From assembly GCA_964641575.1 (NCBI GenBank), contig CAZXMP010000006.1, positions 1,627 through 65,626 on the forward strand: a stretch of 64,000 nt of DNA, given 5' to 3'. The notes under the pieces were generated by a model. The model saw only the letters and a program-made list of their open reading frames with translations. It did no database searches and had not been told where the DNA came from. A program made the position numbers and the translations under genes. This document shows, one piece after another, positions 10,217-19,492 of the stretch; position 1 is the first letter of the stretch, and each line of letters starts with the position of its first letter. Origin of the DNA: an uncultured Chitinophaga sp. (GTDB taxonomy: Bacteria; Bacteroidota; Bacteroidia; Chitinophagales; Chitinophagaceae).

Positions 10217-10990
10217 ATGTCTTCTATCCTTTTCGAAATAAAAAACTCTATCGGTTTTATTACTTTAAACCGGCCTGATAAACTCAATTCTTTCAACCGT
10301 GAGATGGCATTACTGATGCAAGCTGCGTTAGAAGAATGTATTAAACCTAAAGTTCGCTGTGTTTATATAACCGGTGCAAGTAAAGCATTTAGTGCCGGGC
10401 AAGATTTAGCAGAAGTTGTAGATCCCAACGGGCCGGGGATGCAAAGGATATTGAGTGAGCATTATAATCCCATTGTAATAAAAATAAGAGAATTAAAAAA
10501 GCCAGTTGTAGCAGCTGTTAATGGTGTAGCCGCAGGTGCCGGTGCTAATATTGCTTTGTGTTGCGATATATGCGTGGCAAAAGAATCGGCCAGTTTTATC
10601 CAGGCTTTTTCTAAAATTGGTTTAATACCCGATAGCGGGGGTACTTTTTTTCTTCCTAAATTAATTGGCTGGCAAAAAGCATCTGCATCAATGATGCTAG
10701 GCGATAAAATAGATGCTGCTACTGCAGAAAGCTGGGGTATGATCTATAAATATTTTGCCGATAATGTTTTTGAAGTAGAAGCATTAAAGATTGCTGAAAC
10801 ATTGGCCGCTATGCCCACTACCGGCTTGGCACTAACAAAACAAGCATTGCAATGGGGTTTTACTCACACAATGTACGAGCAACTTCAAAATGAAGATAAG
10901 CTACAACAAAGAGCAGCACAAACTGCCGATTATAAAGAAGGAGTGCAGGCATTCCTGGAAAAGAGACAACCCAATTTCAAAGGCGAATAG
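10217..10990 (+). CDS. paaG: 2-(1,2-epoxy-1,2-dihydrophenyl)acetyl-CoA isomerase (crotonase family)
   Basis: LNRPDKLNSFN, FSAGQDL, VNGVAAGAGANIAL, GLIPDSGGT. Start ATG 10217. Confidence 0.88.
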   Translation: MSSILFEIKNSIGFITLNRPDKLNSFNREMALLMQAALEECIKPKVRCVYITGASKAFSAGQDLAEVVDPNGPGMQRILSEHYNPIVIKIRELKKPVVAAVNGVAAGAGANIALCCDICVAKESASFIQAFSKIGLIPDSGGTFFLPKLIGWQKASASMMLGDKIDAATAESWGMIYKYFADNVFEVEALKIAETLAAMPTTGLALTKQALQWGFTHTMYEQLQNEDKLQQRAAQTADYKEGVQAFLEKRQPNFKGE

Positions 10991-11967: not shown

Positions 11968-12561
11968 ATGTTCTACGAATTCAAAGGAATCAAACCCGTT
12001 GTTCATGAATCATCTTTCGTACATCCACAAGCTGCTGTAACAGGCAATGTAATAATTGGTAAGGATTGCTATATCGGCCCCGGCGCAGCATTGCGGGGAG
12101 ATTGGGGTCAAATTATTTTAGAAGACGGATGCAATGTGCAGGAAAATTGTACCATACATATGTTTCCAGGCATTACTGTATTATTAAAAGAAGGTGCACA
12201 TATTGGTCATGGTGCTATAATACATGGTGCCACAATTGGTAAAAATTGCCTGGTCGGTATGAATGCTGTAATAATGGATAATGTGCAGTTAGGTGATGAA
12301 AGTATCATAGGGGCATTAACCCTGGTTAAAGAAGGTGAAATAATTCCTGCCAGAAGTGTAGTAGCCGGTAATCCCGGAAAAATTATTAAAGAAGTCAGCA
12401 ATGAAATGCTGAATTGGAAAACAGAAGGAACAAAGCTATACCAGCAGTTACCCGCAGAATGCCGCAACTCATTAAAAATTTGCGAGCCGTTACCTACTGA
12501 TACCATTTTAAACAGAAAAGCCTCTGAATCAGCCTATAAAAGCTGGAAAAAAGGTCAATAA
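11968..12561 (+). CDS. paaY: Hexapeptide-repeat (gamma-carbonic-anhydrase-like) protein PaaY
   Basis: PVVHESSFVHPQAAVTGNVIIG...LRGDWG...IGHGAIIHG; paa context. Confidence 0.85.
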   Translation: MFYEFKGIKPVVHESSFVHPQAAVTGNVIIGKDCYIGPGAALRGDWGQIILEDGCNVQENCTIHMFPGITVLLKEGAHIGHGAIIHGATIGKNCLVGMNAVIMDNVQLGDESIIGALTLVKEGEIIPARSVVAGNPGKIIKEVSNEMLNWKTEGTKLYQQLPAECRNSLKICEPLPTDTILNRKASESAYKSWKKGQ

Positions 12562-12628
12562 TACGATCTGTCAATCAGCTTATTGTAGCGAGACAACTAC
12601 AAATTTTTTAAAAAAAATCTACAAAAGC

Positions 12629-12659
12629 TTGCAGAAGTAAAAACACGGAGTTACTTTCG
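12629..12659 (+). promoter_or_regulatory. Predicted sigma-70-type promoter of the first T9SS cargo gene
   Basis: TTG(CA) -33 element and TACTTTCG -7 element; a similar layout occurs at about 15395-15425. Confidence 0.5.
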
Positions 12660-12716
12660 TTCTCCCAATTACAAATTCCACTCCTCCAAAAAGACCATAG
12701 AATTAAGTTCCAAACT

Positions 12717-12814
12717 TATTCCTCGTTGAACCACTGAGTCTTACATCCTGTTGATACACCTTACTAAAAATCTATTCCTCTAGTTGAAACTCTGAGTCTC
12801 AAATCCTATTGATA
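12717..12814 (+). repeat. Two imperfect ~40-nt direct repeats in the predicted 5' leader
   Basis: 12717-12756 versus 12773-12814, 35 of 40 aligned positions identical by eye. Confidence 0.8.
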
Positions 12815-12882
12815 TGCCGTTCCAATTCTTCTAAAGCCCAACGGTTTAGGATTTACTATTTATAACATAAAAATCTCAGAGC

Positions 12883-15033
12883 ATGAAAAAATTTACTTAT
12901 TCTTTACTGATCGCTTTTGCAGCGATATTATTTTCGGGAACAGCCTTTGGCCAGATTACAACCGTTGGGACTGCAACAACTGCTTCCTCAACAACTGGTT
13001 CAATTACAATTAGCAAACCAACGGGCATACAAGTTGGTGATTTAATGATTGCATCCATTGTGGAAAGTGAAGCTTCTGGCGGAACTGACCTTGGTAGTTC
13101 AAATGGCTTAACTGGTTGGACTTTAATGAGCGAAGGAACATTAGCTGGAACCAATCCAGAATTTTATGGCTATGCGTTTTATAAAATTGCTGTTTTAGCA
13201 GATGTAACGACCAGTGATTATACTTTTGATCTGGATGGTTCTAATAATGCAGCGTCTGGAAGTATTATTGCTTTTAGGGGAGTTAATAACACTACTCCTT
13301 TTGACATAACACCAAGCGCCTCGCTTGCAGGCGTAAATACAGATAATAGTTTATCTCCTTCTGCAATTTCGCCGATATCGGCCAATACTGCTGTAGTAAT
13401 GCTTGGTTTTGTTGGTTTAAATACAGGATCCGCTAATATTTTTAGCGGTTGGAATACCACAAGTCCAGGTGCCTTAACTGAACTTGTTGACTTTGGTGCA
13501 ACCGCTACAAGAGGAAGAGGTGTAGGAGCTGCTTGGGCTACAAAAGCAAGTACCGGGACTACAGGTCCAACAGGTACAGCTACACTAGCTGGAAACTATG
13601 CTAATGGGTCTTTATTGATTGCTTTAAGACCCTTTATAGATCCTGTTCCAAATCCAAACTTATGGTCAGTATCAGGCACAGGTGATCTTAGAAAATATAC
13701 CATGGATCCAATAGCAGGTACTTTGTTAGCTGGTCCTGCAACGGTTGTTACTCCGTTAACTTCTACTGCCGCTGTAGCCAAAAATCAAATTACACCTAGT
13801 GATGTTAATGGTTGTATATACTATCTTGACAGAGACGATGATGACACAAAAAATGGTGTAGTTACTATTTATTCTTTACGTCCTGATGGTACCGGCCATG
13901 GTAGCAGAGGCACTATCGATATGAACGGTGCCGCAAATACTAGCGACTTTAGTTTTGTACGCCTTGGTTTTGATGCGTTGGGCAGAGGATGGATTTTAGC
14001 TGGTACTGGTGGCACTATCTACATTGCCTCATTCCAGGGTAATGGTGTAAATGCAATCAGCGGTGTAAATACTTTCGGAAATGCTACTTTAAATGTTGCA
14101 GCTCCCGGTCAGGCTACAGATTTCCAAAATGGTGATTTAGCTATTACTGCTAATGGTACCATGTACGCTGTTGCTAACGTAACAGATGGAGAAACTTATG
14201 TGTATGTATTGAACTCTCTTAACACCCCAACTACTCTTTCCCGCAAGTGGACAGTACAACAAGGTGGTAACACTTTCTCCGGTAGTGTAAATGGTTTAGC
14301 GTGGACACAATCAGGTTCATTGCATTTTTCTACCAGCACAGGTATATATTTTATCGACCAGTTTACTGCAAACACTGCTTCGGGTACAGTTCAGGCAACT
14401 TTAGTTGCTAACACAGGTGGCTTGTCATTAACTGACCTTGGCTCCGATAGATTCCCAACTCAAACAACTTTACCTGTTGACCTGATCAGCTTTGCCGGTG
14501 CATACAGCAACCAGAAAACAAACCTTAACTGGGTAACTGAAAACTTACAGGACTTTGATCGTTTTGAAGTTGAGCGCAGCACAGACGGAAATAATTATAT
14601 TACTGTAGGTACAAAAGCTCCGGTACAAACTGCAGCAAGAACTACTTACTTACATACAGATGATTTATCTGCTGTAAATGGTACTGTATTCTACTATCGT
14701 CTTAAAATGATAGACCTGAACGGACAGTTCAAATACAGCAATGTAATATTGGTACGTAAAGAAAGTAACGTAAAGGGTATCCGCATCAACCCGAACCCGG
14801 TTGTAACGGGTGGTGTTGCTACTTTACGTTTTGAAGCAAGTGCTAAAGGCGTTGTAGAATTCCGAATAGTTGATATGGCGGGTCGCATAGTGTTGAGGCA
14901 GCAGAATAATGTTGCAGAAGGTATCAACAGCGTTCCGGTTAACAGCCTTGATCGTTTGCAACCTGGTACATACATCTTGCAAATGAATGATGGTACGGCA
15001 ATACAATCAACCAAGTTCATCGTAGCACAATAA
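12883..15033 (+). CDS. T9SS type-A secreted protein (N-terminal beta-rich domain, propeller-like middle, sorting domain)
   Basis: Signal peptide; TLPVDLISF...FYYRLKMID...INPNPV...LQPGTYILQM C-terminus. Confidence 0.85.
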   Translation: MKKFTYSLLIAFAAILFSGTAFGQITTVGTATTASSTTGSITISKPTGIQVGDLMIASIVESEASGGTDLGSSNGLTGWTLMSEGTLAGTNPEFYGYAFYKIAVLADVTTSDYTFDLDGSNNAASGSIIAFRGVNNTTPFDITPSASLAGVNTDNSLSPSAISPISANTAVVMLGFVGLNTGSANIFSGWNTTSPGALTELVDFGATATRGRGVGAAWATKASTGTTGPTGTATLAGNYANGSLLIALRPFIDPVPNPNLWSVSGTGDLRKYTMDPIAGTLLAGPATVVTPLTSTAAVAKNQITPSDVNGCIYYLDRDDDDTKNGVVTIYSLRPDGTGHGSRGTIDMNGAANTSDFSFVRLGFDALGRGWILAGTGGTIYIASFQGNGVNAISGVNTFGNATLNVAAPGQATDFQNGDLAITANGTMYAVANVTDGETYVYVLNSLNTPTTLSRKWTVQQGGNTFSGSVNGLAWTQSGSLHFSTSTGIYFIDQFTANTASGTVQATLVANTGGLSLTDLGSDRFPTQTTLPVDLISFAGAYSNQKTNLNWVTENLQDFDRFEVERSTDGNNYITVGTKAPVQTAARTTYLHTDDLSAVNGTVFYYRLKMIDLNGQFKYSNVILVRKESNVKGIRINPNPVVTGGVATLRFEASAKGVVEFRIVDMAGRIVLRQQNNVAEGINSVPVNSLDRLQPGTYILQMNDGTAIQSTKFIVAQ

Positions 15034-15044
15034 TATTTCAATAT

Positions 15045-15076
15045 AAAAGGGATGGGTTTCTCCATCCCTTTTTTTC
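15045..15076 (+). terminator. Intrinsic terminator
   Basis: AAAAGGGATGG-gtttct-CCATCCCTTTT plus T run. Confidence 0.85.
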
Positions 15077-15166
15077 TTTTCATTTTTATTTATAGCACTG
15101 CCCTTAGGGGATAACCTTATCGAAGATTCAGTTATATATGGATAAATGAAAGACTGATAGATGATA

Positions 15167-15231
15167 CATGCTCAGGGTTTTTATACCTTGAACCCCTCTG
15201 GCCCATGCGGAGGGGTTTTTTTATTTACCCG
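15167..15231 (+). ncRNA. Candidate small RNA, copy 1 (seed plus intrinsic terminator); 5' end unknown
   Basis: 65-nt block nearly identical to 18001-18066. Ends in an AACCCCTC...GAGGGGTT hairpin plus T7. Lies between the upstream terminator and the downstream promoter. Confidence 0.5.
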
Positions 15232-15638
15232 TATAGCCATACCGGAGGCGTAGTTGCCTTAGCGAATTCGGATTTTCCGAAGCCTTAACAAAGTAGGTTT
15301 ACCCCATGAAACTTTAGCCAGAAGTTTTTTGTTCACCCTTTTATAGCGATTCAAAAAAAAGATTAAACTTTTTTTAAAAAATCGTAAATCTACCTTGCAG
15401 GTATTACGTTGGGTTTTTACTTTTACATCACTTCAGAATTCGTACCTATACAAGAGCCACATTTAATCAGCGTCCTTAGTACGCATCCACCCTTTCTACT
15501 GTAAAACCCCTTAAGAGTTTTTATTTTTTAATTACCCATATCGGGTCCAATCCTGCATAAAGCCAACGGTTTATTATCCATCCGCTAAAACCACCACGGT
15601 TACGGAGTTATTTATTTTTTAATTATAAACCATTGAGC

Positions 15639-17861
15639 ATGAAAAAAATTATTTATTTAAAAGGATTTCTTTCCTTACTATTTGCTATAATAGCAAATCT
15701 GTTGTTTTCGCAAACAATTACTTTTACTTCCCCTGTATCGGGTTCAACAACAAATGTTACTAACGGTAGCAATCTTTCTATAACAGCTGAAAGAACTACT
15801 GCGAGTTGGAACGGCGGAAACAGCAACTGGACTTTTAATTTTAATGTTGTTTCAGGACCAGTAGGTGGGGTAAGCCTTTCTCCTGATCCTATTTCAGGAA
15901 ATAATATTGAAGAAGCAACAACAACGGCTACTTTCTCAATTATTGGTACTTATGTTATAAGCTGTACGGTGAATGAAAATGGCGGTGGCGAGACCCATAC
16001 TACTAGCACAGGGAACAATATTACCATAAATGTGGTAGCACCTGTACCACTTACTCCTATCGGTTGTAACGGCCAGTTTTATGTTAGCTATGGGCCAACT
16101 TCTGGTGCAAACGGTAACACACTTCTGAATAAACTTACATTTGCTGGTAGCAATTTATCAGCATCTTCTTTCCCGGTTAATCCAGGAAGCATGGGCTTTA
16201 ATTCAATGGGCTTAAATCCAATTGACGGATATATTTACGCTGTACGCTATCCAGCTGGTGGAGGCAAATCCCGCTTAATAAGAATTGGCAATGGATTACC
16301 AAATCAGGTTGATTTGGGTGAAATAGCAGCACTCAACACAGGTGAGATTTCTTACTCAGGTTGTTTTGATGAAAACGGGGATTACTATTTTACTACAAAC
16401 TCAGGCACTGGTTCTGGAAGATTGATGAGAATAACAAATGCCAATCTTGCAGCAAGAACCGCTACACAGATTGCAGCCAGCGGTTTCACTAGTATATATG
16501 ATATCGCAATCAATCCTGTTAATGGACAGATGTATGCCACTAATTCAAGTACCGGTGCAAATTTCCTTGCTACTGTAAACAAAGCAACTGGCGCAATTAC
16601 GACCATAGCTGGTGGTAATGCAGGAGGTAATTTCTTTGCAGGCCTGTTCTTTGATGAAGTGGGCGAATTGTATGGTTACAGGGCGAACGGCTCCTTCTTC
16701 CAAATCAATAAAACCACAGCGGCTCTTTCTGCAGCAGGAAGTGGTGCCGCTTATTCCGGAGCCGATGGCTGTAGCTGTAGCTTTGGCCGTGTGTTTCATG
16801 ACCTGGATTTTACGCTGAATCCGAGCAACCAAATTTGTCCCAGCCAAATGAACCCTACATTCCCGTTCCCGCTAACTGTTTCTGTAACGAATGAATCAAG
16901 CAGTCAACAAACTGGTCTTACATATACCCTTGATATTTCCGACCCTGCTAAAAGACTTGTGTTTACAGAAAGCAGTGCTACCATAAAAGCAAATTTTATT
17001 ACAGCCGGACTTGCTACTGTTGCCTCAACAGTAACACTTTCATCGGCCACCCCTGGCGATCCAATCAATAAATTGGTTATTACAGGTTTTCAAACTGGTG
17101 GAGCTGATGCAACTTTAAGCGCCGTATTACAGGTAGCTGTAGCAACATTGGGAGGCACCTATCTTCCTGTTCCTATTCAATCTGAAATTACCGGGCTAGA
17201 TCCTGTGTTTGGTGGTAACGATTTATCGAACGACCCGACTTCCATTCCTCCGGATGATGCTACGGTAATTACTTTCTGCCCGAACATTACACTTCCGGTA
17301 ACCTTGTTAAGTTTTGGTGGCAACTTAAATAACAATACTGCACAACTTGATTGGAGCGCAGAAAATCAAATCAATTTCTCGTTCTATTCAATTGAGCGTA
17401 GCATAAACGGTGTTGACTTTAAAAATGTAGGTACACAAGCCGGTCTGGGTACCAATACAAGCAGAGAGCAATACCAATTTACTGAAGACCTTTCTGCGGA
17501 ACATTCTAATATATTCCTCTATCGCCTTAAAATGGTTGATGTAGATGGTACTTTCAAATACAGCAATGTAATTGTACTCAAGAGGGATGAAGGTGCTACA
17601 CCGGGTATCAGAATTAACCCGAACCCATTAGTAAGAGGTGGCCAGGTTTCAGTTGTATTTAATTCTCCAAAAAAGAATACGGTTGACTTTAAAGTAATTG
17701 ATATGTCTGGTCGCATAGTAGCAACGCAGCGCAGTAATGTAGCTGAAGGAGCTAACAGTGTTGCTATCACCAGTCTTGATAAACTACAACCGGGCACTTA
17801 CGTATTGCAAATGAACGATGGTATTGCAATACAAACAGCTAAGTTCGTAGTAGCTAAATAA
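15639..17861 (+). CDS. T9SS type-A secreted protein (Ig-like plus propeller-like domains), paralogous C-terminus to 12883-15033
   Basis: Start ATG 15639; signal peptide; TLPVTLLSF...FLYRLKMVD...INPNPL...LQPGTYVLQM. Confidence 0.85.
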   Translation: MKKIIYLKGFLSLLFAIIANLLFSQTITFTSPVSGSTTNVTNGSNLSITAERTTASWNGGNSNWTFNFNVVSGPVGGVSLSPDPISGNNIEEATTTATFSIIGTYVISCTVNENGGGETHTTSTGNNITINVVAPVPLTPIGCNGQFYVSYGPTSGANGNTLLNKLTFAGSNLSASSFPVNPGSMGFNSMGLNPIDGYIYAVRYPAGGGKSRLIRIGNGLPNQVDLGEIAALNTGEISYSGCFDENGDYYFTTNSGTGSGRLMRITNANLAARTATQIAASGFTSIYDIAINPVNGQMYATNSSTGANFLATVNKATGAITTIAGGNAGGNFFAGLFFDEVGELYGYRANGSFFQINKTTAALSAAGSGAAYSGADGCSCSFGRVFHDLDFTLNPSNQICPSQMNPTFPFPLTVSVTNESSSQQTGLTYTLDISDPAKRLVFTESSATIKANFITAGLATVASTVTLSSATPGDPINKLVITGFQTGGADATLSAVLQVAVATLGGTYLPVPIQSEITGLDPVFGGNDLSNDPTSIPPDDATVITFCPNITLPVTLLSFGGNLNNNTAQLDWSAENQINFSFYSIERSINGVDFKNVGTQAGLGTNTSREQYQFTEDLSAEHSNIFLYRLKMVDVDGTFKYSNVIVLKRDEGATPGIRINPNPLVRGGQVSVVFNSPKKNTVDFKVIDMSGRIVATQRSNVAEGANSVAITSLDKLQPGTYVLQMNDGIAIQTAKFVVAK

Positions 17862-17885
17862 TACTTTTTTAAAATACACTAATAT

Positions 17886-17914
17886 GGGGATGGCCTTGTG
17901 TCATCCCCTCTTTT
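17886..17914 (+). terminator. Intrinsic terminator
   Basis: GGGGATGG-ccttgtg-TCATCCCC followed by TCTTTT. Confidence 0.7.
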
Positions 17915-18000
17915 CCAGCCTCAACATAGTACCCTGTTCTTATAATAAAGTAGGGAGTTGCTAACAGACGAATAATATTATGATTAGTAAATCAGACGAT

Positions 18001-18066
18001 CATGCTCAGGGTTTTTAGACCTTGAACCCCTCTGGCCCATGCGGAGGGGTTTTTTTTATTTACCCG
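18001..18066 (+). ncRNA. Candidate small RNA, copy 2
   Basis: Differs from 15167-15231 by one substitution and one extra T. Confidence 0.5.
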
Positions 18067-18232
18067 CCCAAGCCTTACCGAAGCCAAATTACCCAAAACC
18101 CCTACGAGGGCAACTTATCCTCCGGGCTCCAACGGCTAGTTTCACCCACCAAAACCACCCATAAAAATTTCTTTTTGCAGCCGCCAAATAGTTGTAATTT
18201 AATTGTTGCTTAATAATCTAAAACCTTAGTAT

Positions 18233-19492
18233 ATGAGAAAAAGTTTACCTATTCTATCTCTCCTTTCTGCCACTTTATTAGCTTCTTCTTCTATCAACGC
18301 TCAGCAAACTGATCGTTTTGCTTATGCTGTTACGGATATGCAACAGCAGGGTGGCAACTGGAGTTTTTTACGAAAATTAAATCTGCAAACCGGCGAGTAT
18401 AGCCCTGTATTACTAAATGGTAACGATGCTTCACTGCTGGCCTATAATGCATCCACCAAAAAACAATTAACTGCCCCGGTTACGGATGCCATTTATGGTA
18501 GTGCCGCTAATGCTGCTTTTGGTACTGGTGTTGCCGCCATGGCATATGATAAGAAAAATAACCGTCTTTACTATACCCCCATGCTGGTAGACCAGTTACG
18601 TTACCTGGATCTAAAAACAATGAAGGTGTTTTATGTAACCGATCGTTCTTTTACCGGCAAGCCACAAAAATCTCCCGACCAGGGAAATATTGTCACCCGC
18701 ATGGTAATAGCATCTGATGGTAATGGTTATGCTATGACGAATGACGGAAGACAACTCATTCGTTTTACTACCGGAAAGAAAATGGAAATAACTGACCTTG
18801 GTTCGTTGGTGGATGATCCTGCTAACTCAGCTTCCATTCATAGTTCCTGCAGCAGCTTTGGTGGAGATATGATTGCTGATGATAATGGCAATCTCTTTGT
18901 TTTATCTGCCCGTAACCAGGTGTTCCAGGTAAATATTGAAACTAAAGTAGCAACTCATCTTGGTACTATAAAAGGATTACCTGCTAATTTTACTACCAAT
19001 GGTGCAGCAGTTAATGATGATAACAAAATCATTATTGGCTCTGCTACTCAATCGGCTTCTTACTTTGCGTTTGATTATAAAACATTAGAAGCTGTTCCTT
19101 ATCAAATAGCAGGTACTGTTTGGCAAAGTTCAGATTTAGCGAATAGTAATTTACTAATAACAAGCAGTAAAAAACCAGTTTCAGATCTAGCAATTACAGA
19201 TTTAAAAATGGCGGATGCAATTGTTGCGGATGGTAAAGTAAGCATCTTCCCTAACCCGGTTACCGATAACCAGTTTACTGTTCGTTTCAACAAATTGGAA
19301 GCAGGTAATTATATGTTACAAGTAACCGATGTAACAGGCCGCCAGGTATTACAACAAAGTATTAGCATTAATGGTGATAACCAGGCTCAGCGTATCAACC
19401 TTTCTGCTGCTACTTCAAAAGGAGTTTATTTAGTAAAGATTGCAGATGCACAAAGTAAAATAGTGTTTAACACAAAGATTGTTGTACAATAA
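18233..19492 (+). CDS. T9SS type-A secreted beta-propeller-like protein
   Basis: Signal peptide; repeated blade-like segments (GGDMIADDNGNLFV); IFPNPV...AGNYMLQV...GVYLVKI sorting domain. Confidence 0.85.
   Translation: MRKSLPILSLLSATLLASSSINAQQTDRFAYAVTDMQQQGGNWSFLRKLNLQTGEYSPVLLNGNDASLLAYNASTKKQLTAPVTDAIYGSAANAAFGTGVAAMAYDKKNNRLYYTPMLVDQLRYLDLKTMKVFYVTDRSFTGKPQKSPDQGNIVTRMVIASDGNGYAMTNDGRQLIRFTTGKKMEITDLGSLVDDPANSASIHSSCSSFGGDMIADDNGNLFVLSARNQVFQVNIETKVATHLGTIKGLPANFTTNGAAVNDDNKIIIGSATQSASYFAFDYKTLEAVPYQIAGTVWQSSDLANSNLLITSSKKPVSDLAITDLKMADAIVADGKVSIFPNPVTDNQFTVRFNKLEAGNYMLQVTDVTGRQVLQQSISINGDNQAQRINLSAATSKGVYLVKIADAQSKIVFNTKIVVQ

Follow-up and report, generated by a model that had tools for sequence, protein, structure and literature searches.

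Tandem repeats in the predicted 5′ leader of a Chitinophagaceae T9SS cargo gene, and a candidate leader RNA family that may pair with its own start region

In the E. coli rpoS mRNA, an upstream segment of the long 5′ leader folds on the translation-initiation region (TIR) and limits translation, and DsrA, RprA, and ArcZ activate by an anti-antisense mechanism. The leader described here resembles that of rpoS in that it is long, has an upstream segment predicted to fold back on the TIR, and could be opened by a complementary trans RNA; here the upstream strand is supplied by the cores of a tandem repeat, which are also complementary to the seed of a 3′ element. It differs from rpoS in that no Shine-Dalgarno sequence is present, the masked site being the A-rich -8 to -2 segment of an SD-less Bacteroidota gene; in that the candidate opener is encoded 3′ of the same gene family; and in that pairing with the upstream strand is not conserved. 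We know of no Hfq or small RNA in the lineage of the window, by which we mean the whole 64,000-nt stretch of DNA analysed, taken from a Chitinophagaceae MAG.

Long 5′ UTRs stabilize the mRNAs of ompA, envelope, and S-layer genes via 5′-terminal hairpins. Our locus shares with these a strong consensus promoter, a leader of ~200 nt, a strong terminator, and a product that is secreted or exposed at the surface, but its leader is G-poor and largely unstructured apart from the start-region helices. The leader is also reminiscent of the cis-regulatory families in Rfam in its conservation, its covarying helices, and its place ahead of a single gene family. In the Staphylococcus aureus icaR mRNA, finally, the 3′ UTR pairs with the Shine-Dalgarno region in a 5′-3′ UTR interaction (PMC3868564). 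The likeness to icaR lies in a conserved 3′-UTR motif with complementarity to where translation of its own mRNA begins; the differences are that the repeats belong to the 5′ partner, and that our locus has an extra anti-TIR strand inside the 5′ leader, so that the TIR has two potential masking partners.

The locus and its leader family

Both repeats lie in the gap upstream of gene 1 (Table 1), a T9SS cargo gene whose passenger domain is without annotation; gene 2 is also a T9SS cargo gene, and a third lies downstream of it. Genes 1 and 2 have unrelated passenger domains; they are alike at the 5′ end, where each has a promoter, a leader, and a signal peptide of one type, and their 3′ ends are alike as well, with ~190 amino acid residues at 52% identity plus a 3′ element at 97%; these tandem arrays have constant flanks (12620-12900 and 15390-15650; 14450-15230 and 17270-18066) around variable passengers. 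A gene for a 23S rRNA intervening-sequence protein (PF05635, 11494-11886) sits among phenylacetate-pathway genes.

Table 1. Coordinates of the features discussed, numbered from the first letter of the window; helices, promoter, and leader are predictions.
Feature	Position	Strand	Description
Gap	between 11968-12561 and 12883-15033		321 nt separating gene 1 (12883-15033) from the gene for a hexapeptide-repeat transferase (11968-12561); holds both repeats
Predicted Bacteroidota-type promoter	12629..12659	+	-33 TTGC (12629-12632), 19-nt spacer, -7 TACTTTCG (12652-12659)
Type-B 5′ leader of gene 1	12665..12882	+	~218 nt
Box 1	12678..12696	+	CU-rich word then AAAAAGACC; kept in most family leaders
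GTTCCAA, upstream member of 7-nt direct repeat	12707..12713	+	partner at 12819-12825; degenerate hybrid at the repeat junction, ~12760-12769
Repeat 1, degenerate copy	12712..12767	+	core CACTGAG (12732-12738), box 3 ACATCCTG (12743-12750)
Repeat 2, intact copy	12768..12825	+	counterpart of the single copy in other type-B leaders
P1, 5′ strand (anti-TIR)	12790..12796	+	CTCTGAG, repeat-2 core; 7-bp Watson-Crick helix with 12875-12881
P2, 5′ strand	12801..12807	+	AAATCCT, start of box 3; helix variant AAAUCCU(A), 12801-12808
P3, small local hairpin	12834..12847	+	AAGCC / GGTTT, stacked under P2
P2, 3′ strand	12848..12854	+	AGGATTT; helix variant (U)AGGAUUU, 12847-12854; ~30 nt upstream of AUG
P1, 3′ strand	12875..12881	+	CTCAGAG, -8 to -2 of the start codon; also complementary to the 3′ element (-18.5 kcal/mol)
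Gene 1 start codon	12883-12885	+	ATG
Gene 1	12883..15033	+	716-aa secreted protein; signal peptide, T9SS type-A C-terminal sorting domain (PF18962, TIGR04183)
3′ element, copy 1	15167..15222	+	seed GCTCAGGGTTT at 15170-15180, small hairpin, terminator
Gene 2	15639-17861		T9SS cargo; DUF6923 passenger
3′ element, copy 2	18001-18066		

The predicted promoter is preceded by an A/T-rich tract and gives a predicted transcription start site (TSS) near 12665; its arrangement, TTGC-N19-TACTTTCG, fits the Bacteroidota -33/-7 consensus of Bacteroides and Flavobacterium promoters. Of 28 homologous leaders, 19 have a TTG-N18-21-TAnnTTT arrangement 195-250 nt before the ATG, and between the window genome (G000) and a close relative that also has the repeats (G399) the promoter boxes are kept and the spacer has diverged; no sigma-70-like promoter was found between the repeats and the ATG. 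Because the promoter fits, most homologous leaders share its arrangement, and no sigma-70-like site intervenes before the ATG, the repeats are probably transcribed within a long leader, which makes plausible the leader of ~220 nt that a sequence-only reading of this DNA had placed downstream of a predicted promoter. The leader is poor in G (10.6%, compared with a mean of 12.6% for family leaders and 19% for the window).

A DNA similarity search with the whole intergenic region returned only chance-level matches in 40 relatives, and protein homology or sequence patterns were needed to find homologous leaders. Homologues of the N-terminal domain of gene 1 were collected from 24 of 147 genus genomes and the regions upstream of them read; multi-box homologous leaders were found at 26 genus loci, and the covariance model R1 matches 29 of the 147 genomes. 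A pattern scan of metagenomes, which was loose, gave at least 120 matches, with 6 real leaders among the matches listed. The leaders have a common order of promoter, box 1, box 2, box 3, hairpin region, and a conserved initiation region, AAAACCTnnGAGC-ATG-AAAAAG; box 2 consists of a CU-rich word, GAAAC, and a variable core, box 3 reads ATCCTnnTGAT, and the repeat unit of the window comprises box 2 plus box 3. Three subtypes, A, B, and C, can be distinguished, the gene 1 leader being type B. These specific boxes persist although the homologous proteins are only ~40% identical, and the ATCCT word of box 3 is kept in all leader types. The sequence-only reading had looked to a CTGAG core in orthologous leaders: the core is kept in most type-B leaders, but is absent from types A and C. 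None of 4227 Rfam models matched the window at gathering thresholds, and at E <= 5 only chance-level matches were found within 12400-18400. The comparison of these leaders points to an RNA family, previously undescribed and absent from Rfam, that is found ahead of a small T9SS cargo gene family in a single Chitinophagaceae genus.

Several observations on individual leaders may be recorded here. A third member of the leader family in the window genome lies outside the window, on contig C40, at a 316-aa T9SS cargo gene (ATG at 10257); its leader is type C, with a AAUGCCUCAAGGUC box for which pairing with the start region of that gene is predicted at -15.1 kcal/mol, and a diverged 3′ element (ATGCTCAGGGG...) starts immediately after its stop codon. 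Type-C leaders L028, L040, L046-L048, L052, L055, and L056 have a conserved hairpin, ATCACC-stem-loop-stem-GGATGA, at about -75 to -40 of the ATG, the distal stem of which varies from sequence to sequence with complementarity kept (CCACA/TGTGG, CCGT/ACGG, CCTGT/ACAGG, CCAAAAA/TTTTTGG). Candidate upstream open reading frames were considered and rejected: the six codons at 12814-12834 (MPFQFF, in the loop between P2 and P3) are found in G399 and not in other type-B leaders, and the in-frame ATG seen in some type-A leaders is interrupted in others.

The tandem repeat and its probable origin

The unit cores, 12717-12756 (40 nt) and 12773-12814 (42 nt), share 35 of 40 positions, with a single indel of 2 nt, and lie exactly where these repeats were first described; a repeat search extends the units to 12712-12767 and 12768-12825, ~57 nt each, with a period of 56-58. 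A degenerate pattern of the unit had no chance match in 100 shuffles of the window, no further copy of the unit was found in the 4.2-Mb genome, and ATCCTnnTGAT was found nowhere else in the genome in a comparable context. Tandem Repeats Finder does not call the units, since two diverged copies score below its limit.

At least 15 related leaders, some from this Chitinophagaceae genus and others from metagenomes, carry a single copy of the unit: in the genus, L060 and L049, then L096, L098, L100, and L101 from four further species genomes, together with L223, L224, L228, L230, and L232, which were reached through the covariance model; and, on metagenome contigs among the matches listed, L120, L128, L144, L153, L180, and L211. 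Among the leaders found, two copies occur only in G000 and G399 (L031/L039), the gene 1 proteins of which are ~96% identical. The nearest one-copy relative, L101/L228, has GTTCCAA on both sides of its unit, and the repeat junction of G399 reads CCGTAACCAA, a hybrid of both flanks that is clearer there than in the window. The distribution of the copies indicates a tandem duplication, specific to this lineage, of a single ~57-nt module belonging to a conserved leader, and the flanking direct repeats suggest the route: slippage or unequal exchange between the GTTCCAA 7-mers probably made the duplication.

The two copies have since fared differently. Relative to G399, repeat 2 has diverged at 1 of 58 positions and repeat 1 at 9 of 57, compared with 27% at four-fold sites; the changes in repeat 1 are mostly in its 3′ half, where the rate is neutral-like. 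We considered and set aside this divergence as proof of selection on repeat 2. The first 300 nt of gene 1 (12883-13182, compared with 2501-2800 of L031) are equally conserved, at 98.3% identity to G399 as against 83-94% for the remainder, and the low divergence of repeat 2 may therefore be partly regional; the 98.3% tract at the start of gene 1 could reflect either a recombination tract or an mRNA-level constraint reaching into the coding sequence.

Predicted pairing between leader and start region

Both the MFE and the centroid folds of the window leader contain P1, P2, and P3. In these predictions repeat 2 forms P1 and P2 perfectly, its core pairing with the TIR at -10.9 kcal/mol, an energy reached by 1.9% of random sites; repeat 1, which carries CACUGAG and ACAUCCUG, reaches at best -7.2 kcal/mol with the TIR (as do 22% of random sites), and its G399 counterpart only -3.6 kcal/mol. 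Deletion of repeat 1 in silico leaves predicted TIR accessibility unchanged (0.40 to 0.41), and deletion of repeat 2 or mutation of its core takes it from 0.40 to 0.55-0.58, with 0.58 for the mutated core. Repeat 2 would be the working copy and repeat 1 a redundant spare in which both pairings have largely been lost; as judged from these folds, repeat 1 appears to add almost nothing to masking of the start site.

Comparison of the leaders bears on these helices in several ways. Specifically, i) P1 is present in 8 of 8 type-B leaders folded independently, and RNAalifold recovered P1, P2, and P3 de novo from 10 leaders; ii) in a MAFFT alignment of 8 leaders, pairing is 100% in P1, where a single compensatory change (G-C to A-U in L049) and a single G-U occur, and 90.6% in P2, where the one compensatory change is A-U to G-C in L100, and registers slid by 1-3 columns are only 16-49% paired; iii) in an alignment of 21 distinct leaders, which was fitted to the model and favours structure, 85.8% of cells are paired and 6 pairs have changed on both sides, P1 being 87% paired (3 pairs changed on both sides) and P3 89% (one such pair), and the covariation score of this model-fitted alignment was reached by 0 of 500 shuffles; across both alignments P2 is 82-91% paired; iv) the core of L232 reads CUCAGAG and its TIR CUCUcGAG, a flip of the central pair, and both its MFE and its centroid fold retain a helix of 10 bp; and v) type-C leaders have, in the corresponding position, AAUGCC-N-CAAGGU, CUGAGU, GCCUCA, or CUCAAAG, and each word fits the TIR of its own leader. 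For 22 leaders of all types, cognate leader:TIR duplexes average -9.1 kcal/mol, compared with -7.3 kcal/mol for non-cognate duplexes (permutation p < 5e-5).

There are exceptions: good cognate pairing is missing in 7 of these 22 leaders, and P1 is missing or interrupted in the type-B paralogues L237 and L238 and in the second copy of L120. By our estimate, about one leader in eight would contain a perfect 7-mer complement to some TIR word by chance; moreover, few compensatory events were seen, and they come from related sequences. We consider the support moderate that covariation keeps leader:TIR pairing. Predicted TIR accessibility is 0.36 in the family compared with 0.49 in 350 other genes (Mann-Whitney p = 1.4e-5, with family members that are not independent); the predicted masking of the window TIR (0.40, 30th percentile among other genes) is modest.

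Our preferred reading, to which we would assign a probability of roughly one half, is that the core of the module is an anti-TIR strand that partly occludes its own start region, rather than a strand that pairs with a small RNA. The module would supply the upstream strands of two helices, CUCUGAG:CUCAGAG (P1) and AAAUCCU:AGGAUUU (P2), and fold-back through P1 would lower cargo translation until something opens the leader. Translation initiation in Bacteroidota involves no Shine-Dalgarno contact, and fold-back should lower cargo translation because Bacteroidota ribosomes are sensitive to weak structure at the start site. In Prevotella, a structure of -5.2 kcal/mol at the start region cut expression five-fold (PMC3155529), and a helix of the size of P1 could therefore matter.

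The modest masking could also be taken to mean that the module has no specific function: P1 and P2 would be incidental, the leader a G-poor landing pad for the ribosome (S1) or an mRNA stabilizer for highly expressed surface proteins, and the duplication a product of neutral GTTCCAA slippage. We regard this as rather unlikely in view of the compensatory and wobble-compatible changes in P1, P2, and P3, the excess of cognate over non-cognate leader:TIR pairing, and the conservation of specific boxes at ~40% protein identity. It would nevertheless agree with the behavior of the whole leader, which folds no better than shuffles (z = +0.25; z = -0.45 to -1.95 for 130-nt segments), with the scarcity of G throughout the family, with the visible decay of repeat 1, and with the flanking direct repeats, which account for the origin of the duplication without selection; the long stabilizing 5′ leaders of ompA and S-layer genes would be a precedent.

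A different constraint is suggested by box 3. ATCCT(N)TGAT is the most conserved word across the three leader types, including type A, in which RNAalifold predicts no partner for the conserved ATCCT; pairing is thus not the sole constraint on ATCCT, and a trans factor may read it. The unit could accordingly be the site of a trans-acting protein, RNA-binding or DNA-binding below the TSS, that reads ATCCTnnTGAT and/or the CU-rich box, the duplication then having given two sites. In repeat 1, 15 of 17 positions of box 3 agree with the type-A consensus, and the 5′ half, with its CU-rich box and GTTGAACC, is kept in G399 (1 change in ~33 nt) and pairs with nothing; box 3 of repeat 1 is, however, decaying in G399 by insertion and substitutions. 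No candidate protein was found, and ATCCTnnTGAT lacks the clear form of a palindromic or direct-repeat operator. Two changes in L239 are both compatible with G-U pairing on this strand only, which argues for a constraint on RNA rather than DNA, and together with the strand asymmetry (10.6% G) such changes speak against a DNA operator; overall we hold a protein site to be improbable. As a candidate DNA palindrome operator, ATCCTnnnTGAT was rejected, its symmetry being confined to the outer 3 nt. Nor do the repeats look like operator or iteron-like tandem sites, the unit being strand-asymmetric, without a clear dyad, and present in one copy in all relatives except G399.

The 3′ element

The 3′ element is 65 nt long, comprises a small covarying hairpin and a terminator, and is conserved in 57 of 147 genus genomes, where it mostly abuts the stop codon of the cargo gene (TAA-ATGCTCAGGG). 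Genes 1 and 2 have their own intrinsic terminators right after the stop codon (15048-15076 and 17886-17915), and the element follows ~90 nt later; since a terminator intervenes between stop codon and element, the 3′ element of the window lineage may be transcriptionally uncoupled from the gene, or reached by read-through only.

The sequence-only reading had proposed that the repeat cores pair with a candidate small RNA seed, GCUCAGGGUUU, and had cautioned that similar words occur by chance. RNAduplex reproduces the pairings, at -16.0 kcal/mol for repeat 2 and -14.3 kcal/mol for repeat 1, and the caution was justified: the pairings are weakly above chance, with 1.2% and 3.4% of random 34-nt genomic sites equaling them, and 16% and 37% of random 250-nt windows hold an equally good seed site. 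Such pairing would be expected if the repeat cores and the TIR were docking sites for the 3′ element, acting as a small RNA or through a 5′-3′ mRNA contact, with the leader serving as target or sponge or being opened by the element. In keeping with docking, seed pairing (-16.0 over 12 bp; -14.3) is stronger than core:TIR pairing (-10.9; -7.2), and of the three seed sites in the window, at -18.5 (TIR), -16.0, and -14.3 kcal/mol, the best upstream one nominally surpasses shuffles of its own leader (p = 0.047). Element:TIR complementarity is also unusual, placing genes 1 and 2 in the top 6 of 1490 TIRs, and the best predicted seed site lies at the TIR in 17 of 20 leaders tested; the seed resembles the 3′ strands of P1 and P2, which makes strand invasion conceivable.

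The family as a whole nevertheless argues against docking at the cores. Specifically, i) when 23 leaders are compared with dinucleotide-shuffled versions, their best seed sites outside the TIR are no stronger (mean z -0.3); ii) box-2:seed energies scatter from -9.2 to -16.0 kcal/mol, whereas box-2:TIR energies are steady at -9.7 to -12.2; iii) the repeat-1 core of G399 is CCGAG, and its seed pairing drops to -9.6 kcal/mol; iv) in L049 (G398) and L232 (G386) core and TIR have changed together with mutual pairing kept (-11.9 kcal/mol in L049), but the seed has not changed in step, and the core no longer pairs with the seed of its own genome; v) the seed is nearly invariant, and where it varies (G386) it does not track the TIR; and vi) half of the seed is inside the covarying hairpin of the element. 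Complementarity between core and seed follows from that between core and TIR, since the seed word CUCAGGG resembles CUCAGAG, which is nearly palindromic. We consider docking an unlikely explanation, and three seed sites or a sponge find no support as a conserved function in view of the mean z of -0.3 and of the seed pairing lost in G399 repeat 1, L049, and L232; what survives of the original interpretation is a long, transcribed-looking leader with conserved, regulatory-looking cores that are complementary to the seed.

A further observation concerns the type-A leaders L045 and L064, in which box 1, at about -141 of the ATG, reads AAAAAGACCCAGAGCAUAU, a near-perfect copy of the initiation region without the AUG; it gives the strongest predicted seed pairing of those leaders (-19.4 kcal/mol).

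We wish to raise, as a very doubtful proposal, an arrangement in which leader module, start region, and 3′ element form a three-part RNA switch that sets cargo translation by 5′-3′ UTR cross-talk. The 5′ half of the element, CAUGCUCAGGGUUUUUA, resembles the 3′ strand of P1 as well as that of P2, and could for that reason invade the leader or bind the AUG region: by invading the module it would unmask the AUG, or else it would bind the AUG region itself, and a duplicated module would be a second docking site that retunes the switch. If true, 5′-3′ UTR cross-talk would control the translation of secretion cargo without Shine-Dalgarno initiation.

Post-transcriptional control in Chitinophagaceae is, to our knowledge, almost unexplored, as is the regulation of T9SS cargo synthesis. 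The tandem repeat matters little in its own right, as a duplication confined to one lineage and with one of its copies in decay; it is useful in marking a putatively functional module and in providing a natural "extra copy" variant. The leader family appears to coexist with a conserved 3′-end element aimed at the same start region. Since Bacteroidota initiate without Shine-Dalgarno contact, accessibility of the start site should be the main translational control point, and a candidate leader family that folds on its own start region would give a concrete handle on translational control in Bacteroidota.
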